Below, piece by piece: positions 20,910-56,301 of a stretch of DNA of 64,000 nucleotides. Source of the stretch: a virus; IMG/VR virus record IMGVR_UViG_3300008448_000002, positions 1 to 64,000 of that record; one strand, written 5' to 3'. The notes below the pieces were generated by a model. It was not told the origin of the DNA, searched no databases, and saw nothing but the letters and a program-made list of their open reading frames with translations. A program made the position numbers and the translations under genes. Position 1 is the stretch's first letter, and each line of letters opens with the position of its first letter.

Positions 20910-21488
20910 TTATTCATCAGAAAAATCAATTTCCTTCATATTCAAAACATCATTGGGATTGAACAATATAAGATGATAAACTCCACCTTTTCTATCAACT
21001 AAGTATCCATAATATCCAAAATCAGAAATTGTTTCAAGATATTCTGTGTTGGCATTTCTATAAAAATCATTTGAAACAAAATCAATAGCATCTTTTAAAT
21101 CCTTTGAGTTCATGAAGGTTTTTAATGCTTCTTGAAATGCCTGAGATTTATTTTCTCCCCAATTTTCAAGAGTATCTTCTAAATTGGGAGATTTTTTCAT
21201 TAATTTGCTAATAACTTCTTTATTGACTCTCATTCCAGTTCTAATGATTTTCTTACTGGACTTTTTTAGTCTTATTTCATATATATGACCACTTAATGAA
21301 TTATTTCCACCTGTATATCTTGCGGCATCTTCTTTACTCGATGTTAAATAAAATCCAACGCCTTCTTGATAGTAGGCATTATTACTACCAACTTGAGAGT
21401 ATTCAAATCCATTAAACTTTTTTGGTGAACCGTGATACCATGTCATTTCAAAAATATTAACAGTAGATTTTATCTCATCAAGTCTCAT
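20910..21488 (-). CDS. ADP-ribosyltransferase-like protein (ART-PolyVal-like)
   Basis: WYHGS..F..F...G.GFYLTSS...AARY pattern, also found twice in 50707..53220. Confidence 0.6.
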   Translation of the reverse strand: MRLDEIKSTVNIFEMTWYHGSPKKFNGFEYSQVGSNNAYYQEGVGFYLTSSKEDAARYTGGNNSLSGHIYEIRLKKSSKKIIRTGMRVNKEVISKLMKKSPNLEDTLENWGENKSQAFQEALKTFMNSKDLKDAIDFVSNDFYRNANTEYLETISDFGYYGYLVDRKGGVYHLILFNPNDVLNMKEIDFSDE

Positions 21489-21489
21489 T

Positions 21490-21750
21490 TTAATTTATTT
21501 CTTTCCATCTAAGTAGTTGATAACCAGAATTAACGGATGTCATCTGTTTAGTATATTTATGACCTTTGGTTTTGTTAAGAATATCATGAACGCAATAGCC
21601 AGTTGTATCGACAACTTTAAGAGATAACATGTAGTTACCATTTAATCGTATCGCTTTGATGCTATTATCTTTCATCAATTTATACTCATGAACAGTAACT
21701 ACAAACTCATTCAATTTAAGTACAACTTTCACAAGTTTCTGGATTTTCAA
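21490..21750 (-). CDS. Hypothetical protein
   Basis: 86 aa overlapping the nrdA 3' end. Confidence 0.5.
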   Translation of the reverse strand: MKIQKLVKVVLKLNEFVVTVHEYKLMKDNSIKAIRLNGNYMLSLKVVDTTGYCVHDILNKTKGHKYTKQMTSVNSGYQLLRWKEIN

Positions 21751-23500
21751 GGTTTTTTACTTCTTGTGTATCACTTGTCATTGACTTGTTTATTTTAGTT
21801 GCCGCTTTACTACGCAAGTAATAAGATGTCTTTAAATCCTGTTCATAAAGGTACATGTACATACTTGATAATGTTTCAAGTTTAGGATTTTCCACAAACA
21901 AGTTTAAACTTTGGCTCTGGTCAATAAAATACGAACGAACAGTAGCATGATTGATTAACCATCGTTGTTTAATTTCCCATACGGTTTTATATAGGTCTTT
22001 AAGGCTTTGTGGGATTTCAGAAATATTTTGTATACTGCCTTCCGCCATAATAATCTTATCGGCAATAGTTTTATTCCATAATCCAATTTCTTTTAAATCT
22101 TCAACCAAGTATCTGTTTGTGCGAATGAACTCACCACTCAATGTTTCTGTTTTAAAGATATTTGATATTTGTGGTTCAATACATTCTTGACTCGCAGTAA
22201 TAGCGGCAATCGTCACAGTAGGGGCAATGGCAATCAAAAGACTGTTTCTCAATCCATTTTCCTTGATATCTTCTTTAAGGGCATTCCATCGCGCCATATC
22301 TTCAATAATAGTGCCATTAGGGAATATTTCAACCATAGAATCTTTTAATTGAGACAAAGGTTTTGCCAAGTCAAATTGTAGTAAACCATTTGCGGCATGG
22401 GATTTTTCAAAATCAGCATGTTTGCCCAATTCTTTTGCCAATTTACAGCTTGTTTTTAAGGCAGCATAATAAATCTCTTCTTGTATCTTGGCACTCCATT
22501 TAATTGCCTCATTACTATCAAAAGGAATTTTCATCTTGAAGAAAAAGTCTTGTAGTCCCATGATTCCTAAACCAACAGGTCTATGTCTACTATTACTCGC
22601 TTTTGCTTCATATGTTGGGTAAAAATTTCTATCAATAACTTTGTCAAGAAACTTTACTGCCAAGGCAACATTCTTATGTAATTTCTTAACATCTAACGTA
22701 CCATCTTTGAAATATTTACCAATATTAATACTACCAAGATTACAAACAGCAGTTTCGCCATTATGAATAGCAGTAAACTCTTCTTTCTCGGCATCATAAG
22801 AAATGATATTAAGATTAGTTTTATCAATACTGTCTAATTCGTCTTTCTTAAATGTAACATATTGCCCTGATGCTGTCGGCTCCAAAATTTCAGTACACAA
22901 ATTTGAGCTATGTAGGACATCTCCACCTGTAGCAGTATTACAACGAATGTTTGATGAATCTCTAAAACACATCCACCCGTTGCCAGTTTCAGATAATGTT
23001 TTCATCATTCTGTGAAATACTGTTTTTGCTGGAATCTGTTTAACAAATAAGCCTTTTTCTTCTAATTCAAAATATTTTTTATTGTATTCTTCTCCGAATA
23101 AATCATTCAACTCTTTACATGTAGTTGGGTCAAATAAACTCCACATTTCATTATTTTTAACTCGTTCCATGAATAAACTAGGAATCCAGTTGGCAATGTT
23201 AATGTTATGTCCTCTGCGCTCTTTTTCACCCGTATTATCTTTCAACTCCAAAAAAGAAAGAATATCGGGATGATGCGTATCTAAGTATACACAGGCAGCA
23301 CCTTTTCTCTTTCCACCATTGTGTACAAAGCCAATAGCAGTATTATAGTTTTTTGTATTATTTACTTTTAAATCATATACTTTTCCCGTGTATTCTTTTT
23401 TTACAATAGAGGTAATCTTTTTAAACTGTAGTTTCTTATGTTCGTTTAAGAAAAGTTCTTCTTTATTTAACTCTTGTAGTTGGTCTTCGTTATTATACAT
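21716..23500 (-). CDS. nrdA: NrdA C-terminal part, preceded by a 61-aa split-intein C-fragment
   Basis: ...VYDLKV...GFVHN|GGKRKGA; SSNLCTEI, AVCNLGSINI, GLGIMG, AIAPT, KTSYYLR and C-terminal CESC. Confidence 0.92.
   Translation of the reverse strand: MYNNEDQLQELNKEELFLNEHKKLQFKKITSIVKKEYTGKVYDLKVNNTKNYNTAIGFVHNGGKRKGAACVYLDTHHPDILSFLELKDNTGEKERRGHNINIANWIPSLFMERVKNNEMWSLFDPTTCKELNDLFGEEYNKKYFELEEKGLFVKQIPAKTVFHRMMKTLSETGNGWMCFRDSSNIRCNTATGGDVLHSSNLCTEILEPTASGQYVTFKKDELDSIDKTNLNIISYDAEKEEFTAIHNGETAVCNLGSINIGKYFKDGTLDVKKLHKNVALAVKFLDKVIDRNFYPTYEAKASNSRHRPVGLGIMGLQDFFFKMKIPFDSNEAIKWSAKIQEEIYYAALKTSCKLAKELGKHADFEKSHAANGLLQFDLAKPLSQLKDSMVEIFPNGTIIEDMARWNALKEDIKENGLRNSLLIAIAPTVTIAAITASQECIEPQISNIFKTETLSGEFIRTNRYLVEDLKEIGLWNKTIADKIIMAEGSIQNISEIPQSLKDLYKTVWEIKQRWLINHATVRSYFIDQSQSLNLFVENPKLETLSSMYMYLYEQDLKTSYYLRSKAATKINKSMTSDTQEVKNLENPETCESCT
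23318..23500 (-). mobile_element. Split intein C-fragment (IntC), followed by Gly+1
   Basis: Block F YTGKVYDLKV and block G GFVHN; Lys-rich in its C-terminal half. Confidence 0.9.
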
Positions 23501-23508
23501 ATCAATCC

Positions 23509-24684
23509 TTAATATTCTGTAGTCAATAAAATGTCTGTTTCTCTAATATCTTTGGCATCAAGCCATTCCGCCTTTAACAATCCCTCATTAAAAAGTCTTT
23601 CAACTTCTTCAATAGGATGATTAGCGGCATTTTTAATAATCAATAAGGGATGTTCAGGTGTTAGTGTGATTGATTTACCATTAGAAATGATTTCAAATAC
23701 TTCTCCTTCATACTCTCCCTCCATTACTTCGGCAATCTCTTGTAATCCAGAAGTTGTATTAACAAGATTTCCTTCAATCAATTCTTCTATTTCAACTAAT
23801 CCGCCCGATGTTTCAACTTTTGAATCTGGTAATAAACATTGATTGACGGCGGCGATGTTGGCATCTAATGAATGTAGGAATGGAATAATACCGTTGCTTT
23901 TACCATTCGTCCCTTTAATCAATGAACCAGTACCTCGAACATTTGAATAGGATAACCCAATGCCACCAGCCCATTTACTGAGCATGGCAATGTCTTTATG
24001 CTTTTTTTCAATATCCAATAAATCATCAATAGGACTAGCCAAGAGATAGCAACTACTCATTTGACTATGTGTTGTGCCACTATTAAACAATGTCGGGGTA
24101 CTTGTCATGTAATCCAATGAGGATAATAATTCGTAAAACTCAATAACATCTTTAACATCATCGGATAGTCCACACGCAACTCGTAGTAACCAATATTGCG
24201 GTGTTTCAAATACAAATCTTTTTGTGGGATGTTTCAGTAAATATCTATCATAGACAACCTTTAATCCGTAGTATTCAAAAAGATTGGTATTTTCTTCTTT
24301 GATGGCACTATTAAGTTTTCTTTTGTTTTTATTGACGAAATCAAGTGTTGATTGTGAAATTAGTCCGTTATCGTATCCCAATTGAATACTTTGACTGAAT
24401 GAATGAATTTCTTGACCTGTTACCTCTTTATTAATGAGAGAGTTTAATAGTCTACTCGCAACTTTTGAATAAATCGGGTCATCCTTAACAAATCCTACCG
24501 CTGTTTGTATGGAAAGTTCATCGAGTTCTTTCGTAGATACACCATCATATAATCCACCAACTGTTTTTGTGGCAATAGTAAAATGGTCTACATTTTCTAA
24601 CCCTTCGCAAACTTTTTTAACACTGTTGATGATTTTTTCGATATTTACAGGTTCTTGAGAACCATTTCTTTTTGTTACTTTCAT
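23509..24684 (-). CDS. nrdA: NrdA N-terminal part (ATP cone) followed by a 109-aa split-intein N-fragment
   Basis: VTKRNG ATP cone, TPTLFNSG, SSCYL, GGIG; AAVNQ|CLLPDSKV. Confidence 0.92.
   Translation of the reverse strand: MKVTKRNGSQEPVNIEKIINSVKKVCEGLENVDHFTIATKTVGGLYDGVSTKELDELSIQTAVGFVKDDPIYSKVASRLLNSLINKEVTGQEIHSFSQSIQLGYDNGLISQSTLDFVNKNKRKLNSAIKEENTNLFEYYGLKVVYDRYLLKHPTKRFVFETPQYWLLRVACGLSDDVKDVIEFYELLSSLDYMTSTPTLFNSGTTHSQMSSCYLLASPIDDLLDIEKKHKDIAMLSKWAGGIGLSYSNVRGTGSLIKGTNGKSNGIIPFLHSLDANIAAVNQCLLPDSKVETSGGLVEIEELIEGNLVNTTSGLQEIAEVMEGEYEGEVFEIISNGKSITLTPEHPLLIIKNAANHPIEEVERLFNEGLLKAEWLDAKDIRETDILLTTEY
23512..23838 (-). mobile_element. Split intein N-fragment (IntN)
   Basis: Block A CLLPDSKV and block B TLTPEHPLL; strongly acidic; no endonuclease domain. 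Confidence 0.9.
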
Positions 24685-24742
24685 TAATTATTCCTAAAAT
24701 TATTTATTGTTTGATTTTATCATAAATTGTACTGTATGTCAA

Positions 24743-25399
24743 TTATGATGTTGGAGTTGATAACCATTTTTTACCACTCCAATTTAATCTATATGTAGCG
24801 ACATCATTGTTTACCAGTAATAAATCAAGATAAGATGTTCCGCCGTCATCTGCCACTCTTGCGGCAAATTGTACGTCTACAATACCGTTTAATTCCGAAT
24901 AACTATCATTAATCAAAATGTTAGTATCATTATCAATAGTAGAACCATTAGTCGTATCGTGTACTATGGAAATAGTTCCAATTCTTTTTTGAAATGGTCC
25001 AACGCCAGATTGGTCGTCAAGTACTAAACTATAATCAATAATATAATTATCGAATGCCAGTGCGACATCTAATCTAATTACTACAGGGGATATTGTGGTA
25101 GATTGTGGTACTGAATTACTGAATAGTGGACCATTCTGATAAATGTTGCCATCTAAATCATAAGCCATATCAAATTCAGTTAATATTTTTATGTTTGAAT
25201 AGGGAAATGTACCCGTGGCATTAGTAGATTCATTAGATGTTGCCAGTGACCTGCGCCATTGTATTTTTTCTAAATCAGGAGCACCGATGAATAATTCACC
25301 TGTATCTGTTGTAAATCCTGGTTCTGATTGTGCCAATGCCTCTGGTAGTGTATCTTTTTTACCTGTTCTTAATTGTATTCTTGAAATCTGCTCAATCAT
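24743..25399 (-). CDS. Virion structural protein
   Basis: N-terminal RIQLRTG...L...EPGFTTDTGELFIG motif common in phage structural/fibre proteins. Confidence 0.6.
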   Translation of the reverse strand: MIEQISRIQLRTGKKDTLPEALAQSEPGFTTDTGELFIGAPDLEKIQWRRSLATSNESTNATGTFPYSNIKILTEFDMAYDLDGNIYQNGPLFSNSVPQSTTISPVVIRLDVALAFDNYIIDYSLVLDDQSGVGPFQKRIGTISIVHDTTNGSTIDNDTNILINDSYSELNGIVDVQFAARVADDGGTSYLDLLLVNNDVATYRLNWSGKKWLSTPTS

Positions 25400-25412
25400 G
25401 CTATAATTTTTC

Positions 25413-26102: not shown

Positions 26103-26175
26103 CTAAACATAATAACATAGTAATGAAAAAATAATCAATTTAAAAAGGTAAATAATCCAAAGAATAGTAACCATT

Positions 26176-29100
26176 TTACTTGTTTTTATATTGCTCCCAT
26201 GCCAATGCGAACGCTAATCCCTTAGTTTTAACTTTACTCGGATATAAATCGTCAACTCTCTTTTTAACCCAATCATGTGCCTTCTTAGAAAACTTTTCGG
26301 TGAGTTTTTGTTCTTTTAACAATTTTGTATATTCTTGTAATGATAACCCTGTATTACTCTCTATAATATTTTTTAAATCATCACTAACTATTTGTGAATA
26401 CTTTTCATTTTCTGTTAAAAGGTTGGTTGCTTTGATGAAATGAGAATCGGATAATTCTTTCTCGAAACCCATTATGTCATTAATTTCTTTAACTGGCATT
26501 TCTGGTTGTCTATAAGAGGTATAATTTTGAACATTTTTAAAAATATCATCTTTATTTAGATTCATTTTATTAAATAAACTTCTCAAAGCGTTTTTAACCG
26601 TGGGGGTGAGGTATTCTTCGTTCTTCTTGGAAACTATAATAATTTCATTAAGAATGCTATTGAAAATCCCCGATGCGTCTTTTCTATCATTGCTGGTTAA
26701 AAACGGAACTATATTAAATAAGTGCGCCTTGCCAATAAACTTGTTCAATACAGACAATTCTTTATAATATGGTATTTTATCTTTATTTTTTTCTATATAC
26801 TTTTTATAATCACTATCTGTCCAATCGCTACTAACAGTTGGTTTATTAACAATACCATCAACAAGTTTAAATAATTTAGTATAGTATTCTTTTTTAAGAT
26901 ATTCAGGATTACATGCTGCTTCCATTGCTCCAGCAAACATTTCGGTATTTCTTTTTACTTCAGAAAACTTAGTATGATAACCACTACCTCCTGCTGCTCG
27001 CCATTCAATATATCCATCATTCTTTAGTCTTGAAAGATTAATAGACTGATACTTGGCGTTGGTTAAAGATTCGTCAATTAGAGGATTTAATGTATTTTCA
27101 ATAAACTGTATATCACCAACCGATTGTACGTTTGATGAAATTACCCTTTTTAATTTATCTACTACACTTGCCGCCCAATTAGATTTTTCTCTATTAAAGC
27201 TACTCAATACATGTGAATCGTTAGATAATACCAAAAGTTTCAATAAATTGAAGTCTTTGTATGATTTACCTTTAATGCTTAAATTAATATGTAATCCACA
27301 AGCATCATTAGTATCACCCTTCTCTTCAATATATTTAAATATCTTACTTATTTGTTCTAACCCCGTCTTCAATTCAAATGGTGGGCTGATTATTTCTACT
27401 GGAATCATCTCATTGTAATCACTATCTAATGACGAATCAGGCTCTAAAATATAAGTGTCTGGTTGTCTTTCTGTATTATGATAGCCATCACTTACTATTG
27501 TTTTGTATCCTGTTAGTTTTTGTATTACAGGCGCGTGTTCATGGTAATGAATAGAGGTTGATTCTTCGTCATTGTCACTATATATATCGTCCCAATATTG
27601 TAGTATGTCATCTGTTATTGATATGTATAACTTGTGTTCGCCATTTATTTTTTCATACTCATATTGATTTCCCATTCTTTTAAGAATAAATATAAAAAAA
27701 TCTTTCATAGTATCAAATTGTTCAGGCATGTTAGTAGAAAAATATTCTTCAAACAATTCATCAATTTTTCCTCCAACATCCGTATAATTTTCATTAGTGA
27801 AAGATAGCATCTCTATTACTATATCAATCATCTCACTATTATCATTAGTCATTGTAGACAAATTTAGTAAGTATTTTTTATCATGAAGACTAATCACATA
27901 ATTTTCATCGCCTAAAAGATAATCCGTTGATTTCAAAAAAGTATTTTTAATAATACTATCATAATCTTTTATAAAAGAATGTATTCTTTTTCTATCAAAC
28001 ATCCATGATAATTTTATTTCAGAAAATGCCTCATAATAGTTGTCAAAATCATCAACATTCTCAAAAAGACCTTGAATATCATCAACCAAGTGTGACTCAC
28101 ACGAAATATCAGACAGCACCCATTCTTTTTGTGGGTTGGGAGCATTTGGTTCATAATCATCTGGTAGTTCCCCCGTTGATGATACATAACACTCTGCTTC
28201 AAATCCCATGACAATATCTGTTAAATTGTCCTTCTTAAACATTTTTTCATTAAGTTGTTGTTCTTTTAACAATTTTGTATAATCTTCTAACGATAGACCA
28301 GATTTACGTTCGATTAATTTTTTTAAATCTCCCGTAATAACTTTTGAATATTTTTCATTTTCTATTAAAAGATTAGTTACCTTAATGAAATGAGAGTCGG
28401 ACAACTCTTTAATACCTAGTATTTTCTGTATAATATCAAATGATAATACCATAGATGAATATCTTTCAATCATCTCAAAGTCATCTTTTGTTATGTCAAG
28501 TTTTTTAGCTATAGTACGGATAGCCAATAAATCCTTTGGTGGTATTTTATTTCCCCTTTTAATCGTATATTTATAAACATCATATAATAGCCTAGAAAAT
28601 TGTAATATAGTCTGCTCTCTACTCATATTACCAAGGTGAGCATACCTACTATCCAAATCTACCCCATTGATATATGAAGATAATGTGTATAATTCCTTAT
28701 AAAATGGAATATTAGATGAAAACTTCTTTAAATATTTTATAACATCATTGTTTGTCGTTGGTGTATCTTGATTATTAACAATACCATCAACAAGTTTGAA
28801 TAATTTTGTATAATATTCTTTTTTCATATAATCTGGATTACATGCTGCTTCCATTGCTCCAGCAAATTGTTCAATGTTGCGTTTTACTTCGGAAAACTTA
28901 GTATGATAGCCACTTCCTCCCGCCGCTCGCCACTCAATATATCCACTATTCTTTAATCTGGATAGGTTAATAGACTGATATTTTTCATTAGTGAAATAAT
29001 TATCAATGAGTGGATTTAAAATAATTTCAATTCGCTCTAAATCAATCACCTTATTTAATGTTGTTGATATCGTTTTTCTTAATTTTTCTACTGTGCTCCC

Positions 29101-31110
29101 TGCCCATCTTGATTTTTCTCTATCGAAACTACTCAATACATGTGAGTCATTTGATAAAACTAATAATTTCAATAAGTTAAAGTCTTTATAACCTTTTCCT
29201 CTAATGCTTAAATTGATATGTAGACCTGTTGCCTCGTTTGTGTTGCCATTCTTTTGTATGTAATTAAATATTTTATTGATTTGTTCTAAACCAGTTTTTA
29301 ATTCAAATGGTGGACTAATGATTTCTACGGGTACTAAACCATCATAACTACTGTCTAAAGACGAATCTGGTTCTAAAATATAAGTATCTGGTCTTCTTTC
29401 GGTATGATGGTAGCCATCACTTACTATTGTTTCATACCCTGTTAATTTTTCTATTTTTGGGGCATGTTGATGATAGTGTTCTGATTGTTCTTCTTCCTCG
29501 TCTTCATCATATTGTGTTATGTCGTCCCAATATTCTAATGTTCCCTGTGAAGTATCAATAACTAATTTATATTCACCTCTTTCGTTAGTGTATACTGAAC
29601 CACTACCATCCAATTCTGTAATTACATCTATCATCACTTGATTTAATGATTTATAATACTCTTTGTAAAATGTTTCTTTATCATACATAGTATCAAACAT
29701 ACGTTGTATATGATACTGAATATCCATATGTGAATCATTTTGTTTTTTAAGTAACAGGTAGATTATTTCTATCATATTACTATCATTGTCAGTAATATTA
29801 TCGAAATCCAATGGATAATAAGTCCCGCCATATGCTCTAAAATAACGATTATTGTCATTTTCTTTAAAAGCGGCTGTTCTTGATTCTTTAAATATTCTTA
29901 TTATATCTTTTTCATCTTTTTTAATAAAGTTTTTTATATGTTCATCTTCGCCGTCTAATTGCCATTCTTTATACTTTTCATCTATTATTCCTCTATAAGA
30001 ATAAGTGTGCTCACCAACATTGTCTAAATAATCTTGTATAGTATAAACCCATTCTTCAATATCACTAGGAGAAGTAACAGATTTTAAATCAATAGTCGTA
30101 CTTGGTGTCCCATCACCTTCTTCTCTGGCACTTTGCTTGGCATACGCGCTATATGAAGCAGTAACATAACACTCTGCTTCAAATCCCATGACAATATCGT
30201 TGAGATTGTCTTTCTTAAACATTTTTTCATTTAACATTTCAAAATGTTCTGTGAGGTTTTCTATCTCGGTAACATCAATAATACCATCATCAACAAATTC
30301 ATCATATGTTTCATCATCGGTATAGATAACATCGGGATTTTTATTAGTAAATATCAAGGTTTTTAAATCATCAATACTATATTCTGTACAACCGCCAAAC
30401 TTGTTTTTAAAATCATGGCAAGATTCTTTATAGGCGTTAATCGCCGCCTGTTTGTTTTTAAAGCCTATCATGAACTTATCTTCATCAAACTTCATTCCAA
30501 CTTTATCTAGTTGATGTATGACGAATATAGGGGCATTCTTAACGGGTTTCGTATTCAAAAAGAAATCTAATTCTTCACCATCGGGAGAAATAGTATTAAC
30601 TATACTACCATAATGATAAACTTGTTCTCTTGACCATTCTTCACCATCATCATTAACCCCTTTACGAATATCTCCAGCAAGGGTTTCAATGTTAAGTTTA
30701 ATTCCATGATAGTTTACAACTTTTTTTGGTTTGATAGAATCTCGTAATTCTTTACTATTAACCCAAAAATATTCAAAAATATCATTATATTGTTCAGTAA
30801 ATACATCTTTAATAAAATTAGAAAATCTTAAAACCTTTGAACCGTCTTCAAATACATTATTATTCTTAATGAAATCATTTACTAACAAGGATAATTCGTT
30901 ATTATCTGATTCTAATTTTGGTAGTTTTGGAAAATATACATCATTATATTGTTGCTCCGCAGTCATCAAGTACTTGATACATACCGTTTTAAGAGTTTCC
31001 TTAATAGTATATTCATCTTTAAAATCAATATCTTTTTTTGTTTCGGGATGATTCAATATTAAATCTAAATATTGTTTCCATGTTGCCAGTTCTACCATTT
31101 TAACTCCCAA
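26176..31110 (-). CDS. Polyvalent-type protein: inorganic pyrophosphatase-like domain + two tandem amidoligase (COOH-NH2 ligase) domains
   Basis: YGSIVNTISPDGEELDFF...FDEDKFMIGF; two copies of GFEAEC / EPDSSL / EIISPP / GLHINLS / KYQSINL / YIEWRAAGG. Confidence 0.75.
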   Translation of the reverse strand: MGVKMVELATWKQYLDLILNHPETKKDIDFKDEYTIKETLKTVCIKYLMTAEQQYNDVYFPKLPKLESDNNELSLLVNDFIKNNNVFEDGSKVLRFSNFIKDVFTEQYNDIFEYFWVNSKELRDSIKPKKVVNYHGIKLNIETLAGDIRKGVNDDGEEWSREQVYHYGSIVNTISPDGEELDFFLNTKPVKNAPIFVIHQLDKVGMKFDEDKFMIGFKNKQAAINAYKESCHDFKNKFGGCTEYSIDDLKTLIFTNKNPDVIYTDDETYDEFVDDGIIDVTEIENLTEHFEMLNEKMFKKDNLNDIVMGFEAECYVTASYSAYAKQSAREEGDGTPSTTIDLKSVTSPSDIEEWVYTIQDYLDNVGEHTYSYRGIIDEKYKEWQLDGEDEHIKNFIKKDEKDIIRIFKESRTAAFKENDNNRYFRAYGGTYYPLDFDNITDNDSNMIEIIYLLLKKQNDSHMDIQYHIQRMFDTMYDKETFYKEYYKSLNQVMIDVITELDGSGSVYTNERGEYKLVIDTSQGTLEYWDDITQYDEDEEEEQSEHYHQHAPKIEKLTGYETIVSDGYHHTERRPDTYILEPDSSLDSSYDGLVPVEIISPPFELKTGLEQINKIFNYIQKNGNTNEATGLHINLSIRGKGYKDFNLLKLLVLSNDSHVLSSFDREKSRWAGSTVEKLRKTISTTLNKVIDLERIEIILNPLIDNYFTNEKYQSINLSRLKNSGYIEWRAAGGSGYHTKFSEVKRNIEQFAGAMEAACNPDYMKKEYYTKLFKLVDGIVNNQDTPTTNNDVIKYLKKFSSNIPFYKELYTLSSYINGVDLDSRYAHLGNMSREQTILQFSRLLYDVYKYTIKRGNKIPPKDLLAIRTIAKKLDITKDDFEMIERYSSMVLSFDIIQKILGIKELSDSHFIKVTNLLIENEKYSKVITGDLKKLIERKSGLSLEDYTKLLKEQQLNEKMFKKDNLTDIVMGFEAECYVSSTGELPDDYEPNAPNPQKEWVLSDISCESHLVDDIQGLFENVDDFDNYYEAFSEIKLSWMFDRKRIHSFIKDYDSIIKNTFLKSTDYLLGDENYVISLHDKKYLLNLSTMTNDNSEMIDIVIEMLSFTNENYTDVGGKIDELFEEYFSTNMPEQFDTMKDFFIFILKRMGNQYEYEKINGEHKLYISITDDILQYWDDIYSDNDEESTSIHYHEHAPVIQKLTGYKTIVSDGYHNTERQPDTYILEPDSSLDSDYNEMIPVEIISPPFELKTGLEQISKIFKYIEEKGDTNDACGLHINLSIKGKSYKDFNLLKLLVLSNDSHVLSSFNREKSNWAASVVDKLKRVISSNVQSVGDIQFIENTLNPLIDESLTNAKYQSINLSRLKNDGYIEWRAAGGSGYHTKFSEVKRNTEMFAGAMEAACNPEYLKKEYYTKLFKLVDGIVNKPTVSSDWTDSDYKKYIEKNKDKIPYYKELSVLNKFIGKAHLFNIVPFLTSNDRKDASGIFNSILNEIIIVSKKNEEYLTPTVKNALRSLFNKMNLNKDDIFKNVQNYTSYRQPEMPVKEINDIMGFEKELSDSHFIKATNLLTENEKYSQIVSDDLKNIIESNTGLSLQEYTKLLKEQKLTEKFSKKAHDWVKKRVDDLYPSKVKTKGLAFALAWEQYKNK
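26296..30225 (-). repeat. Internal tandem duplication (1980-bp and 1950-bp units)
   Basis: Both units begin KMFKKDNL.DIVMGFEAECYV and end KELSDSHFIK...YTKLLKEQ.L(N/T)E; DNA similarity is visible at 28191 versus 30171. Confidence 0.9.
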
Positions 31111-31754: not shown

Positions 31755-32618
31755 CTATTTCTTCTTACTTTTAATCCACTCTGCCAATTTCTTAGGGTCT
31801 TCTTTTTTCTTATTTAGAATTTTACTTTTGAAGTCAAAATACTGTTCTTTGTTCATCTTTTGGGCAGATTCAGTTAAAATCCATCTTACCAAAGTATCAA
31901 TGGATTCATTAACACCTTCGAGTTTTTTATACGCCATTGCTGGAATAAACATAGTTGTTTGTTTATTGCCTTTTTTTAACACAACAGTAATACCATCTTT
32001 TTTAATATCAACAACAGTAGTAACTAAATCAGGAAAATTATATTTCAGTTCTTCAAAATATTTCTTTTCGATGGGATTCAAAGGAGATTTACTATTTTTT
32101 TCCAAATAATCCGCCATTGCCGTCTTTAATACTTTTACTTTATCACCTTTTTTAACATCATCGGCGGATTCTTTAAGTTTTCTACCAACTGGTTCATCTT
32201 CTTCGCCAGCAGCAGTAGGCACAGCTCCAAATCCATCATCCATTTCTTCTTCTTGAGGGGCAACTTCAACAGCATCATTGGAATCATCATATGCCATGTC
32301 ACTAAAGTTTCCTTCGCTAGAAACATCAAAATTACCTTCTAAACCAGTGATGAAATCACTAATTTTATCTTTTGATACTCTTAACTGTTCAATAGATGAA
32401 TCAAGCTCGGATTTTACAAGTTGTTCAAAATCATCAGACAACTTTTCACCAAATACAGTTCTCATTGTATCGGCAAGAGGCATGGTATCTTCGATTTCGA
32501 TTTCTGCCAATCGCTCGATTGCTTTTTGTATGTTATTGATTAAGTCTTTTGCCGCAAGAATAACTTCTGCTTTTTGTAGACCATCTTCTAATAGTAATGA
32601 TATTTTATTGTGTCTCAT
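31755..32618 (-). CDS. Probable prohead core/scaffold-like protein
   Basis: Acidic helical protein with LLE, LKES, VNES and LTES motifs. Confidence 0.5.
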   Translation of the reverse strand: MRHNKISLLLEDGLQKAEVILAAKDLINNIQKAIERLAEIEIEDTMPLADTMRTVFGEKLSDDFEQLVKSELDSSIEQLRVSKDKISDFITGLEGNFDVSSEGNFSDMAYDDSNDAVEVAPQEEEMDDGFGAVPTAAGEEDEPVGRKLKESADDVKKGDKVKVLKTAMADYLEKNSKSPLNPIEKKYFEELKYNFPDLVTTVVDIKKDGITVVLKKGNKQTTMFIPAMAYKKLEGVNESIDTLVRWILTESAQKMNKEQYFDFKSKILNKKKEDPKKLAEWIKSKKK

Positions 32619-32925
32619 ATTTTCCTCTTTTTGATTTTGAGCGTTTTGGGGCGACTTCTCTAAGAATAATTCTCATTGATTCCATGATAAGTGTATTTTT
32701 TCTATAAACTTTATCTTCTATTGATATGGATGGATTAATATAAGACAAATGTTTATTTTTATCTTCATATAATTTAAATATTCTCTTTGCCTCATTAATG
32801 TCATCTACCGACAATGACAAATCAAACTCTTCTCTAAGCATGGAGTTGAATTGTTTCAATGTATTATCAGTTGTATGAATATCGTCAATGAGCATCAGGG
32901 AATTGTTCCAAATAACTAGTTTCAC
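32605..32925 (-). CDS. Hypothetical late protein
   Basis: GTG start; TATAAATA at 32929-32936 on the minus strand. Confidence 0.55.
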   Translation of the reverse strand: MKLVIWNNSLMLIDDIHTTDNTLKQFNSMLREEFDLSLSVDDINEAKRIFKLYEDKNKHLSYINPSISIEDKVYRKNTLIMESMRIILREVAPKRSKSKRGKYETQ

Positions 32926-32942
32926 ATATATTTATAAAAAAA

Positions 32943-35480: not shown

Positions 35481-35657
35481 TTAGCGTCTAATCATGGTTG
35501 GTTTAGATTGTTTTTTCTTTTTTTGTTTTTCATAGATGCCTTGATGTCCATTTATATCAAAACCATCACTTGTTAATGGCATAGCTACACAAGCCACATT
35601 TCCCGATGATGTAGAACCAGCGGTTGCGTTTTCTTTTAATAATTCATCTAATAACAT
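35481..35657 (-). CDS. 58-aa protein (below track cutoff)
   Basis: MLLDELLKENATAGSTSSGNVA...KKKKQSKPTMIRR; TAATG coupling to the upstream gene. Confidence 0.65.
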   Translation of the reverse strand: MLLDELLKENATAGSTSSGNVACVAMPLTSDGFDINGHQGIYEKQKKKKQSKPTMIRR

Positions 35658-36370
35658 TATTTGCTCCCTACTGTGCCACCTAATAATGCGCCAATTAATG
35701 TTGATACAAATGTACTAGGTTTTTTACACTTTCCTGTTTCCGCATTACATGGTACATCTAATTCCATTTTTTCTTTTGATGCCCATTCTTCAAAGTTTTT
35801 TCTGATTTCGTCTTGTACTGGCAATCTATGTCTTAATGCTTGTAATAATCTTGTTACAGCTATCTTTTTTCTATTGTGTTGGTCTATATCCCAGTCAACA
35901 ATTAATCTTCTAAGATTTTTATAGCTTGATTCTTCAATGCCCAATCTTTTTTCCATGATGTAGATAAATGTAAAATCTAAGTGATTATCGTGTTCTCCGC
36001 TATGGAGTCGAGCGAAGTACCCTCTTAACAATGTTTTATCAATAGTTACAGAATTAATGAATACTCTGCTTTCTTCTTTATCTTTGAGCATCTTTATGAT
36101 AGATTCATTATCGTGCGTCATGAATACATATAACAATAGGGAAAAGTCATTCTTAATGTTATTATAACCTCTAAAGTTAGTTGTTAATACTTGCTCGGCA
36201 TAATTCATAGTGAAGCGTTTTTTAAGAAATGTTTTACGCATGATTTGTATTGCCAGTAGATACAAATATACCATATTTGCTAAATCTCTGGCATTATATC
36301 GCTTAAAGTCAGAAATAGACTTGATTGTCTTACCTTCTGTTAAATCTTGTAAAAAATCAAAGCTCATCAT
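35657..36370 (-). CDS. Conserved hypothetical, probably head-associated
   Basis: Starts MMSFDFLQDLTEG. Confidence 0.55.
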   Translation of the reverse strand: MMSFDFLQDLTEGKTIKSISDFKRYNARDLANMVYLYLLAIQIMRKTFLKKRFTMNYAEQVLTTNFRGYNNIKNDFSLLLYVFMTHDNESIIKMLKDKEESRVFINSVTIDKTLLRGYFARLHSGEHDNHLDFTFIYIMEKRLGIEESSYKNLRRLIVDWDIDQHNRKKIAVTRLLQALRHRLPVQDEIRKNFEEWASKEKMELDVPCNAETGKCKKPSTFVSTLIGALLGGTVGSK

Positions 36371-38138: not shown

Positions 38139-38591
38139 TTATCCATCGTCTATTAAATCATTTTCATAGGCATATTGTCCCATGAGGTAGAATATATCTT
38201 TAACTACTTTATCGGAATAAGGTACAGGTGATTTTACTGTTATTTTGGCGTTTTTTATGTTTTGTTTATATTGAGCAAACGGAACTCTTATATTTTTTGA
38301 TAGTAAATAGGTAGATATTTCATGACTATCGTCATTAAATTTAACTATATTTGTCAAAAAAGCATATAGGTCTTTATATGAACCATCAGAACCAATTTTC
38401 CCAAGATATATTCCGTAGTTTTTTGTTATTTGTTTAACAAATTTGTCTAGTTCTAATCTTCCTGCCGCCTTTGCTCCAACTTTACCATTAGGGTCAATTT
38501 TCGATAAAGCCTTATCATAAACTTTACTAAGAAAGCCTCTCTCTGATAGTTCATCTTCCATTAAAATCTCATCTAGTAACATCTTTTTCAA
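38139..38591 (-). CDS. Hypothetical protein
   Basis: 150 aa, starts MKKMLLDEILMED. Confidence 0.55.
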   Translation of the reverse strand: MKKMLLDEILMEDELSERGFLSKVYDKALSKIDPNGKVGAKAAGRLELDKFVKQITKNYGIYLGKIGSDGSYKDLYAFLTNIVKFNDDSHEISTYLLSKNIRVPFAQYKQNIKNAKITVKSPVPYSDKVVKDIFYLMGQYAYENDLIDDG

Positions 38592-46898: not shown

Positions 46899-46945
46899 AT
46901 CATACTATAATATCATTTATCTACAATTTTATCAATATTAAAATA

Positions 46946-48404: not shown

Positions 48405-48406
48405 GA

Positions 48407-49471: not shown

Positions 49472-49496
49472 AATAATAAATCCTTAATATAATTGT

Positions 49497-49533
49497 TAAA
49501 AAATGGGGAGGAGGAATAAGTAACTCCTCCCCT
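49497..49533 (-). terminator. Rho-independent terminator after gene 32
   Basis: GGGGAGGAG/CTCCTCCCC stem followed by a U-tract on the minus strand. Confidence 0.85.
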
Positions 49534-49549
49534 AGTTGCGTTTATATAA

Positions 49550-50539: not shown

Positions 50540-50706
50540 ATAGTTATAATTTCCTTTGAGTTATATATGAGTTAAAAATGAGTTAATGTGACAATTTCAC
50601 TTGTCATATACTATTTATGAAATATTTTAGATATTATTTTCTAAAATCATCATATACTCAATATATCTCTTCTTAAGAAAAAATACAATATAATTTTATC
50701 TATTTT

Positions 50707-53220
50707 TTAAAGTTTTTTTGCTATTTTATCAATGATGTTATCGCTCATGTCTCCGCCGAGTACTATATCAGATTCTTGTGATAGGTTTTGTATAATATTC
50801 AACTTATTAACGGGTATTTTCTTAATTTTGCCACCTTTTGTTTTAACAAAGGCACTATTATCTTTTTGACCCAGATAACAAACTGTGTATAAATTATTGT
50901 TGTATGCTATCTTAATCATGTCGTTGTTTTTTGGTGTGTCATCTGATTCTGTAATTTTTTTAGAATTAGATGAGAAATCACCGTTGTTAGTAACAGCAGA
51001 TTTTATATGTAAAGAATCGAATACCACATATGTATCTGTGTTTACTGTTTTTTTTGAATTATTATAGTCATCAAGAACATTTTTAATAATTACACCATCA
51101 TGTGAACTACTTATTGCTTTTTCGATTACATCAGTTGTTTTTCCAATAGCTTGTACTTCTCTCCAATACTTACCATCTCCTTGAACAATTAATGGATTTT
51201 CAATCTTTAAATAACATTGAATTATAGCCGGTTCTGCGTTTTGATAATCAAAAGCTCTCCTATCATCAGCATAAGTAGAAGCTGTTTTTCGATGTTTCGC
51301 AAACCAAAACGCGCCAACACCTTTTTTCTCTCCATATCTATCTTGTACACTCATGAAGATGGGAGATGCTTTCATAAATCTAGCATCAGGTGAACCATGA
51401 TATAATACCAATGGTCTTGCTTGGTTGTCGATTGCTTTCGATTCTCCAAACCAATTCCAGAAATTAATAATTCCTTCAATTGTAGGATATATTAATTCAT
51501 TTTCACTATTTTTCGTTTGTCTTTGTTTTCCATTAACTTCAATGGTGTAGGGTATTTCAATAACATCTTCATTTAGGTTTTTAATGGATTTAATTTGGTT
51601 TTTATCAAACACACAGTATATTCCAGCATTATCTACTTCAAATCTTCCTAATTTTTCCTTAGAAGGATATTGTATAATTGAATCATACTGTTGTTTATCA
51701 CTAGATTTAATATTGGTTGTAGATTTTACTATTTTAGGCGCATATACTTTTAAATAAGCCGTCTTAATATTTGAGCCATGAAATTTGGCATATTGTTCAT
51801 CATCGGTAAACCAAAAACCAATTTTTGATACTGAACCATGATTTTTTCCAAGATGCGATTCATCAAAATCTTCAAACTCATAATCAGTGCCATGATAAAC
51901 TACTAAAGGTCTACCTTCTTTATCAACCATTTTGCTATCATTAAACCATTTATAAAAGTTTACTATTGCTTGTTCTGTGTTGGCAATATATTCTCCTTTG
52001 CTATTTCTCGTAGGTCTTTGTTTGCCACCAACATTAATAGTTTCTGGTATTTCTTCACTCTCGTTTAATTTATCTACTGTGTAATCACCACTTTTATGCT
52101 GTGTGCCACCCAAAGATTTATATATAGAGGGAACTTGTTTTTTATTACTTCTTTGTTCATTTTCTCCACCAATTCCTTTATATTGCTTAGATATAAATTG
52201 TAGAGCTATTTCGTATAGTTTCTTTCCGAAACCTTTATTTCTGTGTTTCGGGTCAATTTGTACATTATAAACAGTTAAATATCCTCTTGTATCTGATGTT
52301 CTTCCTTCTGTTAGTAATAAATACCCAACTTTTTTATCTTTATACCAGAGTGTCACATACTTACAGTTATCTATTGAATCAACGGCAATATAGTAATCAC
52401 CGCTTTCATATACAATATTTTTTCCATGTTCATCTTGTTTAATCAACTTATAGTTTTCATTAACAATGTATTTTTCATTAAACCAACTCTCAAATATTTG
52501 TTCTTCTTCTAATGGTTTATCTTTTTTTAATACTTCATTGTTATATATTTCTATCAATTTTTCAGAGAATAGTTTTTCAAAATTATTTAATGTTTTGTTA
52601 TTGATTATCTTCGCGGCAATACCTTTTACAAATGTTTTAAATAGAGTATTCTTTATTTGCGCTCTGTCATTAGAGAAATATGTTATATTATCAATCTTAT
52701 TAGGATTTGATGCCGTATGATACTTATTGTACTTTAATTTACCAGATAATACATTTTCAATAAGTTTAGCAAATCCTAATACTTCATCTTTATATACTAT
52801 TTCCTCTTCATCATCTGGTTTACCATATATTTTTTCATAATATTCTTTGGCAAAGTCTATATATTTACTATCTCCAAATGATTCTTTTAAATCGAATAAG
52901 AAGTCCTTCGGTTTTAATTGCTTATTAAACTTTTTTATATCAAATAACATGTTATATTTTACAGCTACTTTTTTCAAGGTATCTATAATATCTTTAAATT
53001 CTTTTAAACTATCATTTCCACTCAGTGATACGTCAACGGATGAATTAATACCATAATCACCTATTGATACCATCATTCCACTATTTTGACAATATATTTT
53101 ACTGGCTTCTCTTGGTTTTGAAACCTTGTCACCCTGTTGATTGAATAAAGTGAGTTTTTCACCATATCCTTTTAAAATGTTAAATACTTCTTCTGTGAGT
53201 TTTTCAATTGTGGTCGCCAT
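50707..53220 (-). CDS. Polyvalent-type protein: head-associated N-terminus + GNAT + two ART-like (DarA/DdrB-type) domains
   Basis: VQIDPKHRNKGFGKKLY (acetyl-CoA motif A); NFYKWFNDSKMVDKEGRPLVVYHGT and NFWNWFGESKAIDNQARPLVLYHGS; late promoter at 53227-53234. Confidence 0.7.
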   Translation of the reverse strand: MATTIEKLTEEVFNILKGYGEKLTLFNQQGDKVSKPREASKIYCQNSGMMVSIGDYGINSSVDVSLSGNDSLKEFKDIIDTLKKVAVKYNMLFDIKKFNKQLKPKDFLFDLKESFGDSKYIDFAKEYYEKIYGKPDDEEEIVYKDEVLGFAKLIENVLSGKLKYNKYHTASNPNKIDNITYFSNDRAQIKNTLFKTFVKGIAAKIINNKTLNNFEKLFSEKLIEIYNNEVLKKDKPLEEEQIFESWFNEKYIVNENYKLIKQDEHGKNIVYESGDYYIAVDSIDNCKYVTLWYKDKKVGYLLLTEGRTSDTRGYLTVYNVQIDPKHRNKGFGKKLYEIALQFISKQYKGIGGENEQRSNKKQVPSIYKSLGGTQHKSGDYTVDKLNESEEIPETINVGGKQRPTRNSKGEYIANTEQAIVNFYKWFNDSKMVDKEGRPLVVYHGTDYEFEDFDESHLGKNHGSVSKIGFWFTDDEQYAKFHGSNIKTAYLKVYAPKIVKSTTNIKSSDKQQYDSIIQYPSKEKLGRFEVDNAGIYCVFDKNQIKSIKNLNEDVIEIPYTIEVNGKQRQTKNSENELIYPTIEGIINFWNWFGESKAIDNQARPLVLYHGSPDARFMKASPIFMSVQDRYGEKKGVGAFWFAKHRKTASTYADDRRAFDYQNAEPAIIQCYLKIENPLIVQGDGKYWREVQAIGKTTDVIEKAISSSHDGVIIKNVLDDYNNSKKTVNTDTYVVFDSLHIKSAVTNNGDFSSNSKKITESDDTPKNNDMIKIAYNNNLYTVCYLGQKDNSAFVKTKGGKIKKIPVNKLNIIQNLSQESDIVLGGDMSDNIIDKIAKKL

Positions 53221-53233
53221 ACATATTATTTAT

Positions 53234-53269
53234 AAAAAAATCCCTGTAAAACTTAATCTACAGGGATTT
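53234..53269 (-). terminator. Rho-independent terminator, copy A
   Basis: AAATCCCTGTA/TACAGGGATTT stem plus U-tract. Confidence 0.85.
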
Positions 53270-53291
53270 CAAGAATGATTAATTATAGATA

Positions 53292-53615
53292 TTATTTAAT
53301 AAACTTTACTATTGATGAGATAGCAACACCAACTACTTCATCAAAGGCATCCTGTAGTTCAACATCCATTTTACGATACTTATCATCACTAATTAATTGA
53401 AGAAGTGCCCCTTTTACTTCTTTTTTAGCAATATTAATATATTCTGAATTATCTACTTTAATGTTCTCGCCTTCTTTTTCAACTAAAGATTGTAATGCCA
53501 TTTTCTTTTCCTCTGATATGTCTTGTTTCTGGATATATTCAGATAATGTCATAGATTTTTTATTTGTCAAGGGATTATTTTCAGATTCATTGATTATATT
53601 AATTAGGTCGCGCAT
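53292..53615 (-). CDS. Putative internal head protein, cassette A
   Basis: MRDLINIINES leader shared with 55903..56301. Confidence 0.55.
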   Translation of the reverse strand: MRDLINIINESENNPLTNKKSMTLSEYIQKQDISEEKKMALQSLVEKEGENIKVDNSEYINIAKKEVKGALLQLISDDKYRKMDVELQDAFDEVVGVAISSIVKFIK

Positions 53616-53654
53616 TTTTATATTTCTCCATATTATACTATTATTTATGAGAAA

Positions 53655-53657
<3 letters not shown>
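53478..53657. repeat. ~180-bp direct repeat, copy A (partner 56161..56343)
   Basis: Near-identical promoter, RBS and first ~45 codons. Confidence 0.9.
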
Positions 53658-55250
<1,593 letters not shown>

Positions 55251-55280
55251 CTATTTAGTATTTTGAATACTAAACATACT

Positions 55281-55802
55281 TTATTTTGTTAAGTAAGCGG
55301 CGTATTCATCCATCAAACTGATTTTTTTATGATTATAGATAGCATGTAGGGCGGCAAACGCATCTGTGTTATCATTTTCAAGCATTTTTACAAATGTTTT
55401 TCCGAGTAAAATCACTTCATCATATGAAATGACATCAAACCCATCGGTTTTTACTTTTTTAAGAATCTCTGCTATATCATCAGAAGATTTTTCATTAGGA
55501 TTTTTTAATAGTTGGATTGAATCTTCGCTAACTTCTCCATCCATTAACGGATTATCACCATAATTATTTGTAATATTATTCTTTAATGTAGTACCTTTAA
55601 CCAACGGCTTAATACTATATTCATCATTATTGCTGTTTTTGTATTCAACCATGCCATAATCAAAATCTGTTTCATCTTCTCCCAACGCTACAACAGACGT
55701 AGGTTGACATGTTGTACAGGCTTTTACACCAGAAAGATTAAGTATTTGACTTAATTCATCGGTGCTGTCAGAAAAAATACTTACGTTAAAATTGGTTGCC
55801 AT
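55281..55802 (-). CDS. Hypothetical late protein
   Basis: TATAAATA at 55829-55836 and GGAGA RBS. Confidence 0.6.
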   Translation of the reverse strand: MATNFNVSIFSDSTDELSQILNLSGVKACTTCQPTSVVALGEDETDFDYGMVEYKNSNNDEYSIKPLVKGTTLKNNITNNYGDNPLMDGEVSEDSIQLLKNPNEKSSDDIAEILKKVKTDGFDVISYDEVILLGKTFVKMLENDNTDAFAALHAIYNHKKISLMDEYAAYLTK

Positions 55803-55844
55803 TTAAATTATTCTCCATATTATATAAGTATTTATACAGAAAAT

Positions 55845-55880
55845 AAAAAATCCCTGTAAAACTTAATTTACAGGGATTTT
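55845..55880 (-). terminator. Rho-independent terminator, copy B
   Basis: Near-identical to 53234..53269. Confidence 0.85.
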
Positions 55881-55902
55881 AAGAATGTATTGTAAAATTA
55901 TT

Positions 55903-56301
55903 TTAAATAATTGTTTCTATTAATTTCAACTCAGGAACATAAATCTCTATTTCTTTGTGTTCATTTCGTAATTTTGAAAATGTATCTATTTTTACTACGT
56001 TATTTCCTTCATTTGTTGCTACCCTTAATACATTTGTACTTTTATACAATATAACAGATTTAGGAATAGAAACGCCTTTTATGTTTAATAGGGTATCGCC
56101 TATTTTTCTATCTTCATTTGTTTCAAAAACACTTTTAATCATTGCTTCGTCAGAAGATGCTTCAACTAAAGATTGTAATTTCATTTTCTTTTCCTCTGAT
56201 AAATTATCTTGTTTGTTAATGTATTCAGATAATGTCATAGATTTTTTATTTGTCAAGGGATTATTTTCAGATTCATTGATTATATTAATTAGGTCACGCA
56301 T
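55903..56301 (-). CDS. Putative internal head protein, cassette B
   Basis: Same 45-aa leader as cassette A, unrelated C-terminus. Confidence 0.55.
   Translation of the reverse strand: MRDLINIINESENNPLTNKKSMTLSEYINKQDNLSEEKKMKLQSLVEASSDEAMIKSVFETNEDRKIGDTLLNIKGVSIPKSVILYKSTNVLRVATNEGNNVVKIDTFSKLRNEHKEIEIYVPELKLIETII

Follow-up and report, generated by a model that had tools for sequence, protein, structure and literature searches.

According to the account in PMC9026906, the prohead protease of bacteriophage T4, gp21, cuts after L/I-X-E and shreds gp22. In the same account the first 10 residues of the T4 internal protein IPIII suffice for targeting to the head, residues 4 and 7 serving targeting and residues 8 and 10 processing, while Alt is an injected ADP-ribosyltransferase (ART) that is trimmed at both ends. 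A second body of work concerns the polyvalent proteins of phages, which are predicted to be packaged and delivered with the DNA and for which autoprocessing by embedded metallopeptidase (MPTase) domains is proposed (PMC5512222; Iyer, Burroughs, Anand, de Souza and Aravind, 2017). The present analysis deals with the first 64 kb (the window, that is, the whole stretch of DNA under study) of the virus record IMGVR_UViG_3300008448_000002 in IMG/VR. The window makes up one third of the 194,657-bp record, which has a CheckV completeness of 51%. It contains two polyvalent proteins of 1644 and 837 amino acids (aa) and several genes that begin with a short peptide ending in [IL]xE. A first-pass annotation, made from the sequence alone, took these peptides for packaging leaders and the same motif inside the polyvalent proteins for domain boundaries at which the packaged proteins are cut. 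Overall, that reading is partly supported.

The reading favoured here, with a probability of about 0.6, is that an expanded T4-type capsid-targeting and propeptide system tags many late enzymes, and that the two polyvalent proteins of the window are fused cargo with protease-type joints. Late host-directed enzymes, among them ART-PolyVal ADP-ribosyltransferases, amidoligases, an InPase-family enzyme, a GNAT and many orphans, would start with a leader of 5-11 residues ending in [IL]xE, the type of site that T4 gp21 cuts. By analogy with the T4 internal proteins and Alt, the leader would dock the protein on the prohead scaffolding core and would then be removed by the phage's own protease of family S77. 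Genes that are separate and leader-bearing in relatives may have been fused in the two polyvalent proteins, with L(N/T)E or ITE kept at the joints. The S77 protease would free single enzymes inside the head, and these would be ejected together with the DNA.

The phage itself comes from a lake and is uncultured. Its major capsid protein (MCP) matches 80 IMG/VR loci at 66-76% identity, many of them on records of 150-600 kb, and the 27 longest records found by this search serve as the relatives for comparison. Since 25 of these 27 records, among them each of the 8 with a completeness of 90% or more, carry S77, and the MCP matches lie on such large records, the phage belongs to a clade of T4-like jumbo phages. 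A search of IMG/VR with the protease had returned close relatives on short contigs only, and the usable clade came from the MCP search. Among deposited phages, no close DNA relatives of either polyvalent gene were found.

The premise that the phage encodes a gp21-type protease proved sound. Outside the window the genome carries an S77 protease, a portal and a gp23-type MCP which together, by Pfam and PHROG matches, form a T4-like head module (Table 1). The scaffold-like protein contains 35 copies of [ILV]xE, where the genome rate would give 6.4 (p 4e-15) and its own composition 14.0 (p 2e-6). It is the single extreme motif outlier of the genome; two other long proteins high in the ranking, at 172151-173929 and 91581-93812, show no excess over their own composition. 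Five motifs fall within the first 57 residues of the MCP, and the fifth, LME, directly precedes QATAGAT. The same arrangement recurs in the relatives: in 22 of 22 examined, the open reading frame (ORF) directly upstream of the MCP gene, the scaffold, holds 25-40 motifs at a density of 6.0-8.5%, and in 19 of the 22 the MCP has [ILVM]xE immediately before a conserved mature N-terminus, xA(T/S)xG(A/S)(T/S). Since this pattern in scaffold and MCP propeptide matches that of T4, a predicted T4-like [IL]xE specificity is well supported for the S77 protease of this clade.

Strong evidence for the leader comes from comparison across the clade. ART-PolyVal was matched 12 times in 6 of the relatives, and the N-termini of these proteins include MRIKEILE, MRIIE, MRYRDLLKE, MRHLINLVE, MRQWINIVE, MRLSEILLE, MRDLMRLCE, MRWSELLAE and MREWINLFE. 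The leader appears to take two related forms, MRxLINhhE and M[RK][IL]xE[IL](hxE), both of which end in [IL]xE. A degenerate DNA pattern for MRxxINhhE finds 10 places in 6 of the 27 relatives, against none for a reversed control pattern. From one relative to another the codons of these matches are freely exchanged (CGT/CGC/CGA/AGA, CTC/TGG and so on), so that both conservation and selection lie at the level of the peptide. The tagged proteins are mutually unrelated and comprise ARTs, a Cys-rich 141-aa protein, orphans of 251 and 215 aa, and an orthologue of the 266-aa ORF at 136909 of the present genome, which itself begins MRLFE. In the relatives, the small proteins encoded between portal and protease carry the leader as well (MKLNE, MKIFE, MKLSE, MRLLE and MRLNE). 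The late genes adjoining the MRDLINIINE genes described below, namely a tail-fibre-like gene at 56331-58355, terminase and portal, start without it.

Counts over whole genomes agree with these examples. In G059, a complete relative of 543 kb and 49% G+C that was analysed in pieces, the leader expression occurs in 24 of 758 ORFs, compared with 0.25 expected from internal positions, and TAAATA lies at most 40 nucleotides (nt) upstream in 20 of these 24 but in only 108 of the 734 others (p 6e-13). The present genome, for which 236 ORFs with 61,540 residues were scored, has the expression in 7 ORFs against 0.12 expected, with TAAATA upstream in 5 of the 7 (p 0.012). The enrichment at N-termini in the two genomes is roughly 60- to 95-fold. 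A Pfam search of ten leader proteins from G059 returned just one weak ART-PolyVal and one weak GNAT match.

A further line of evidence is that the relatives hold stand-alone homologues of the modules of the 1644-aa protein. The stand-alone InPase homologue starts MEFFKQLNE, and the amidoligase homologues start MRYNEILNE, MKIKELNE, MKIFEILTE (after an upstream Met) and MRYQELLMRE. When a fixed first-ATG rule was applied to all 17 stand-alone ART, InPase and amidoligase loci, 13 had [ILV]xE ending at residue 5-11, against a background in G059 of 13.1% (99/758; binomial tail 5e-9). Of the four misses, two are frames without an ATG before the match and one has Met in place of I/L/V; in the remaining miss, an open frame rich in GC, the first ATG stands a long way upstream of MSPDLRQLINLVE, which is internal. 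One short N-terminal leader ending in L/I-X-E is thus common to otherwise unrelated proteins of this genome and its relatives, and the comparative support for a predicted leader across the clade is strong.

In the window, both genes said to start with MRDLINIINE are present, and a six-frame scan finds this peptide or a close variant in five genes, at 53292, 55903, 128512, 183925 and 185173, the last with the variant MNYRDLINIIE. When the five are aligned, D-L-I-N-I-I is invariant and the remainder diverges, with one copy carrying a 16-aa insert immediately after the leader. Four copies have a region of about 46 residues in common, which ends in (L/I)VE and beyond which they are unrelated. The protein of 55903-56301 is matched over residues 58-128 by phrog_17899 (unknown function). 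The promoter-like and ribosome-binding sequences of the two window genes are the same, and 47 codons are shared at high DNA identity, which makes the pair partly the product of a recent duplication. In a set of 5.8 billion proteins, one other protein matches the MRDLINIINE N-terminal region.

The other leaders named at the outset can also be located. The starts MLLDELLKE, MMSFDFLQDLTE and MRHNKISLLLE all exist, whereas MKKMLLDEILME at 38139-38591(-) holds only with a TTG start codon and gives way to MLLDEILME with ATG. The protein at 31755 has homologues in 11 of the 27 relatives, in ORFs of 238-1057 aa; ten loci were examined, and [ILV]xE stands before the conserved core in 8 of the 8 in which the region is visible. 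At 35657, L(T/C)E is retained in 5 of the 7 clade homologues, two of the five being near-identical. The protein at 38139 has no homologue in the 27 relatives. As an observation apart, the 31755 family combines a conserved helical N-domain with an acidic low-complexity middle and a variable overall length (238-1057 aa), and in relative G055 its gene adjoins the InPase gene, as it does in the window.

Both large proteins of the window are polyvalent, one with InPase and two Amidoligase_2 domains, the other with GNAT and two ART-PolyVal domains. The coordinates given for the seven motifs inside them were correct, and six of the seven stand at an edge: LNE 293, LNE 953 and LTE 1603 at repeat edges of the 1644-aa protein, and LNE 385, LNE 549 and ITE 756 at ART edges of the 837-aa protein. 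For the seventh, VNE 253, no edge could be shown. The likely start of the 1644-aa protein is the ATG at 31098 (MVELATWK...). Its two 660-aa amidoligase copies are 50% identical over 677 aligned residues. Their alignment starts by pairing EMLNE·KMFKK (residue 291) with QQLNE·KMFKK (951), and ends by pairing QQLNE·KMFKK (960) with QKLTE·KFSKK (1610), the raised dot marking the position after the motif. The three named sites lie 2-5 residues from the ends of the tandem repeat, and an 8-residue linker, L(N/T)EK(M/F)(F/S)KK, stands on both flanks of the module. A search of a 1.84-billion-protein library with the module gave 2122 matches that align over the catalytic core only (query ~240-520), so that the flanks are not comparable. 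Among Pfam matches at E<=0.01, no peptidase family was found in either polyvalent protein.

In the 837-aa protein, Pfam places ART-PolyVal at residues 598-749, with a second, weaker ART copy. The present genome has four such ART units, two in this protein and two in a 782-aa protein at 130065-132413. L(N/T)E·SEEIPETI or a close variant of it stands before each unit and KITE·(S/A) after it, except that the first unit of the 837-aa protein, which is shortened, has LNE there; all four are therefore flanked by [IL]xE. Full-length orthologues of the 837-aa protein were not found. Since the matches cover single domains only, conservation of the junctions is not readable from orthologues. Residues 13-108 show a weak match to the N-terminal portion of a family of virion structural proteins, and the N-domain of about 110 residues matches phrog_13484 (virion structural protein) at E 3e-4, that of a relative at 3e-29. 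The N-domain of this protein and the 31755 protein thus both match PHROGs labelled virion structural protein, which provides a link to the virion. In some ORFs with the phrog_13484 domain, and only in some, [ILV]xE ending at residue 10 is retained. Two side observations belong here. The phrog_13484 N-domain heads ORFs of 377-1376 aa in 12 of the 27 relatives, as if it were a carrier for variable cargo. An independent case of this architecture is a GC-rich polyprotein of relative G062 (~164.5-167.9 kb), over 1100 aa long, in which two ART-PolyVal units are accompanied by the joints LDE·DAS and IHE·(A/G)G and in which MSPDLRQLINLVE is either an internal or the true start.

The last residue of the ART-PolyVal tail was compared between phages with and without S77. 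ART-PolyVal is widespread in phage records of 20-65 kb in IMG/VR; in deposited phage genomes it was found in 5 records at E<=1e-8, none of them T4-like. Among 81 copies parsed from 71 of 80 IMG/VR loci, the tail reads I-x-(Y 23, F 18, N 9, E 7, R 6, K 5, others 13), with Q or S as the next residue. S77 was found in 0 of 50 ART-bearing records searched and S78 likewise in 0 of 50, 22 of these records being at least 90% complete. As such phages offer no protease that the tail could follow, the broad notion of an ART tail residue linked to the head protease in every phage was abandoned. Copies from the S77 clade were aligned to a profile built from the 81 tails, and three further copies were truncated in the alignment. 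All 9 aligned S77-clade copies have Glu in the tail column (all 11 when a looser rule for the tail is used), compared with 7-8 of the 81 copies from phages without S77 (Fisher p 4e-6, with the three truncated copies scored as misses). In a quick tree, in which 12 of 87 branches are well supported, the S77-clade ARTs fall in several positions, and the well-supported branches force at least three changes. The apparent association between a Glu tail and S77 across ARTs is striking but not established.

Table 1. Positions of the genes, motifs and promoter-like sequences discussed in the text; residues are those of the named protein.
Feature	Position	Strand	Remarks
192-aa single-domain ART-PolyVal protein, starts MRLDE·I	20910..21488	-	Pfam/PHROG
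1644-aa polyvalent protein	26176..31110	-	InPase (Pfam 129-251), then two tandem 660-aa amidoligase modules (Amidoligase_2)
LTE, residues 1603-1605	26296..26304	-	right edge of repeat 2 (LTE·KFSKK), then 39-aa tail
LNE, residues 953-955	28246..28254	-	junction of repeats 1 and 2 (LNE·KMFKK)
LNE, residues 293-295	30226..30234	-	left edge of first amidoligase repeat (LNE·KMFKK)
287-aa protein, starts MRHNKISLLLE	31755..32618	-	phrog_14154 (virion structural protein); same apparent operon as 1644-aa gene
TATAAATA	32929..32936	-	3 nt upstream of 32605-32925, first gene of the run ending with the 1644-aa gene
58-aa ORF, starts MLLDELLKE	35481..35657	-	resembles the xLxE[IL]LxE leader type of relatives
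237-aa protein, starts MMSFDFLQDLTE	35657..36370	-	homologues in 7/27 relatives
150-aa ORF, starts (MKK)MLLDEILME	38139..38591	-	MKKMLLDEILME if TTG start used; ATG three codons on gives MLLDEILME
837-aa polyvalent protein, starts MATTIEKLTE	50707..53220	-	GNAT 280-371; tandem ART-PolyVal units ~388-551 and 552-758
ITE, residues 756-758	50947..50955	-	at conserved ART-PolyVal tail column
LNE, residues 549-551	51568..51576	-	end of ART unit 1, start of unit 2
LNE, residues 385-387	52060..52068	-	directly precedes ART unit 1 (LNE·SEEIPETI...)
VNE, residues 253-255	52456..52464	-	present; GNAT begins at 280; module edge could not be shown
Perfect TATAAATA	53227..53234	-	6 nt upstream of ATG of 837-aa gene, directly after terminator-like hairpin
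107-aa late gene, starts MRDLINIINE	53292..53615	-	46-aa N-terminal region ending LVE common to paralogs; C-terminal part unrelated
ATAAATA late-promoter-like heptamer	53642..53648	-	26 nt upstream of MRDLINIINE start of 53292-53615
132-aa late gene, starts MRDLINIINE	55903..56301	-	paralog of 53292-53615 over first 47 residues only
ATAAATA late-promoter-like heptamer	56328..56334	-	upstream of second MRDLINIINE gene
gp23-type MCP	116907-118121		Pfam Gp23 profile begins at residue 65
Scaffold-like protein, 406 aa	118146-119366		outside window
Peptidase_S77 (T4 gp21 family) prohead protease	119367-119990		PF03420 at 119490-119957(-), E 5e-27
gp20-type portal	121097-122851		Pfam/PHROG match; outside window

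Within the window alone, the pattern is not clearly above chance. The motif [ILV]xE occurs 980 times in the 61,540 residues of the genome, about once per 63. The 1644-aa protein contains 30 copies, against 26.1 expected from the genome rate or 30.0 from its own composition, and the 837-aa protein contains 17, against 13.3 or 11.7. The first-pass annotation had rested its case on the position of the motif at boundaries, but within the window that position is not significant by itself. An enrichment near Pfam domain edges was not borne out either: the distance of the named sites from such edges, 9-47 residues, is not short for a motif whose copies are on average about 50 residues apart. At the N-terminus, 42 of the 236 ORFs have an [ILV]xE that ends at one of residues 8-13, compared with 8-12% at four internal offsets, and 20 have an [IL]xE that ends at one of residues 9-11, a number raised by the 7 that belong to two paralog families. 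After paralogs are collapsed the genome-wide enrichment is marginal, and replication-like proteins also show the motif near residue 10.

Several points weigh against tagged, cleavable cargo. The [IL]xE motif is common in amphipathic helices. The chance-level density in the polyvalent proteins means that most copies cannot be used sites, and used and unused copies are indistinguishable from the present evidence. Since a single repeat element supplies all three joints of the 1644-aa protein, they count as about one observation; by our own arithmetic, any one point has a probability of ~0.18 of lying within 5 residues of a motif. The 1644-aa protein also lacks a canonical leader at its own N-terminus (MVELATWK...). 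In this genome, the link between the generic motif and an upstream ATAAATA is not significant (p 0.14), and the leader expression was composed after examples had been seen, 4 of them from G059. The phylogenetically independent contrasts on well-supported branches behind the ART tail number only three; all three go in the expected direction (sign test p 0.25). Stand-alone ARTs of the relatives end in [IL]SE 2-4 residues before the stop codon, where a cut would remove almost nothing. Lastly, docking, cleavage, release and injection are steps that we infer for an uncultured phage. With the motifs at repeat edges and the Glu tails of the ARTs (three independent contrasts) as its basis, cutting of the polyproteins at their junctions is plausible.

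Tentatively, the favoured reading can be extended to a plug-in address code. Any enzyme provided with a 9-10-residue MRxLINhhE or M[RK][IL]xE[IL] leader would enter the head, and the polyvalent genes would be strung cassettes in which former leaders serve as internal cut sites. The tails of incoming ARTs may then have changed from I-x-Tyr/Phe, the form in phages that lack S77, to I-x-Glu in at least three lineages to fit S77. Under such a code the prohead protease, not an embedded peptidase, would be the general processor of polyvalent cargo in T4-like phages. Such a code is possible, though less likely than not.

The likelier of the two alternatives grants that the leader peptide is real and gives it another purpose, such as an amphipathic helix for oligomerisation, recognition by a chaperone or late factor, or translation from a short 5' leader. 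The polyvalent proteins would then act uncut, like the N4 virion RNA polymerase (vRNAP) or P1 DarB, and [IL]xE would be a by-product of helix composition. The upstream sequences bear on the translational version. ATAAATA, which resembles a late promoter, precedes both MRDLINIINE genes of the window, and the context of the copy at 53642, CATAAATAATAGTATA, is a 16-mer that is also found upstream of the late-looking genes 58355-59134 and 64801-68043 (functions not established). Upstream of the leader genes, ATAAATA or TAAATA is a sequence match only. As an observation in its own right, (T)ATAAATA lies 3-15 nt upstream of starts in the window (53220-53234 and 32925-32936), elsewhere in the genome (70323, 78551 and 136909) and at loci of the relatives. 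Since this distance leaves no room for a Shine-Dalgarno sequence, it suggests that several cargo-type genes may be expressed from late mRNAs that are leaderless or have a very short leader.

With TAAATA so close to the ATG in many leader genes, the first codons may have been selected for translation. Precedent for uncut delivery also exists, in that PMC5512222 refers to N4 vRNAP as packaged unprocessed and to ArdC and TraC1 as transferred full-length in conjugation. The chance-level motif density of the polyproteins and the position of the [IL]SE tail of stand-alone ARTs just before the stop codon fit the same alternative. However, the free variation of the leader codons between relatives points to selection on the peptide, and the scaffold of these phages is extremely rich in the motif with which the leader ends. 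The same leader is found on small head-module proteins, while the tail-fibre-like, terminase and portal genes, late genes beside the MRDLINIINE genes, do without it. On balance, a purpose other than head targeting appears unlikely, and tagged cargo remains the preferred reading. It is improbable that there is no system at all, with a three-residue motif picked by eye in an I/L/E-rich genome and two MRDLINIINE genes that are a recent partial duplication: the frequency of the motif, its chance density in the polyvalent proteins, its presence near residue 10 of RecA-like and clamp-loader-like ORFs (named by eye), and the promoter, ribosome-binding site and 47 codons common to the window copies are what such an account would predict, but it is countered by leader expressions enriched at the N-termini of two genomes, by a leader that recurs in other codons in 6 of 27 relatives with no control matches, by its presence on 13 of 17 stand-alone module homologues, and by joints that coincide with repeat edges.

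Some further features of the genome may be recorded. Outside the window, 70323-71468 and 72562-73689 are paralogs, 66% identical, which both start MKIHQIITE; by eye only, they combine a PcfJ-like core with C-terminal leucine-rich repeats, and one of them has TATAAATA 6 nt upstream of its ATG. Also outside the window, a 480-aa ORF at 108538-109980 begins with MRLVE and, judged by eye, has the signature of an R-S-E-type ART such as T4 Alt; it has no Pfam or PHROG match. In the window, the ORF list alone shows DNA-polymerase-like ORFs split into 15552-16634(-) and 18087-19730(-), with an opposite-strand 379-aa ORF, 16956-18095, between them. Small paralogous ORFs of 60-127 aa form arrays at 13534-15574 and 19731-20870 of the window and at 68734-69509 of the genome, and begin MKT(L/F)..., for example MKTLMIDD, MKTLIINK, MKTFYVKQ and MKNFYVKQ.

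If the favoured reading is true, the leader would be a sequence rule that predicts which of the hundreds of orphan genes in phages of 200-600 kb encode injected proteins, and such proteins would form the first wave of host takeover and anti-defence. Two subjects that are treated separately in the literature searched, T4 head maturation with capsid targeting and polyvalent effectors, would be joined, with an enzyme named and with sites that can be tested on peptides. Like the T4 capsid targeting sequence in present laboratory use, the leader would also be a natural and modular tag with which foreign proteins could be packed into large phage heads.

Among described systems, P1 DarB resembles the proposed cargo as a very large multi-enzyme antirestriction protein with an N-terminal head signal that also works on a reporter (PMC9024508). 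Unlike the leader here, the DarB signal has more than 9 residues and no more than 30, its removal by a protease is not reported in what PMC9024508 says of it, and P1 belongs to another lineage with another protease. In the jumbo phages phiKZ, 201phi2-1 and SPN3US, as PMC9026906 relates, diverged gp21 homologues cut many head-internal proteins after Glu at a short motif, propeptide-bearing head and ejection proteins among them, which is what is proposed for the S77 protease; phiKZ gp175 has been assayed as a recombinant protein. Those phages differ in their motif, S/A-X-E in place of [IL]xE, and are not close relatives, and in its passages on them PMC9026906 does not describe a common 9-10-residue leader.

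With the polyvalent proteins, as PMC5512222 presents them, the two window proteins have in common that several domains of the repertoire (InPase, Amidoligase_2, GNAT and ART-PolyVal) stand in one polypeptide in a phage context, with delivery alongside the DNA predicted. Embedded MPTase domains are common in that family but not a requirement; neither window protein has a recognised peptidase domain, and the cutter proposed here is the head-maturation protease. The word 'prohead' occurs in PMC5512222 in the reference list only, by a word search, and a limited literature search found no papers linking polyvalent proteins to a prohead protease.

The closest likeness is to T4 IPI-III and Alt. The protease family, S77, is homologous, and a predicted leader of about ten residues ending in [IL]xE stands on otherwise unrelated proteins. 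The hydrophobic residues of MRDLINIINE at 4, 7 and 8, and its Glu at 10, agree with the requirements that PMC9026906 gives for the T4 signal. An ADP-ribosyltransferase is among the proposed cargo, with N- and C-terminal sites as in Alt, but the ARTs of the window match PF18760 ART-PolyVal and not the Alt R-S-E family, from which PMC5512222 separates it. Unlike in T4, the leader has a different sequence and takes two consensus forms, dozens of genes per genome are tagged compared with a handful in T4, and modules are fused into polyproteins with internal sites. We know of no polyprotein cargo with internal sites described for T4. The predicted system is in these respects a new variant of T4 capsid targeting.

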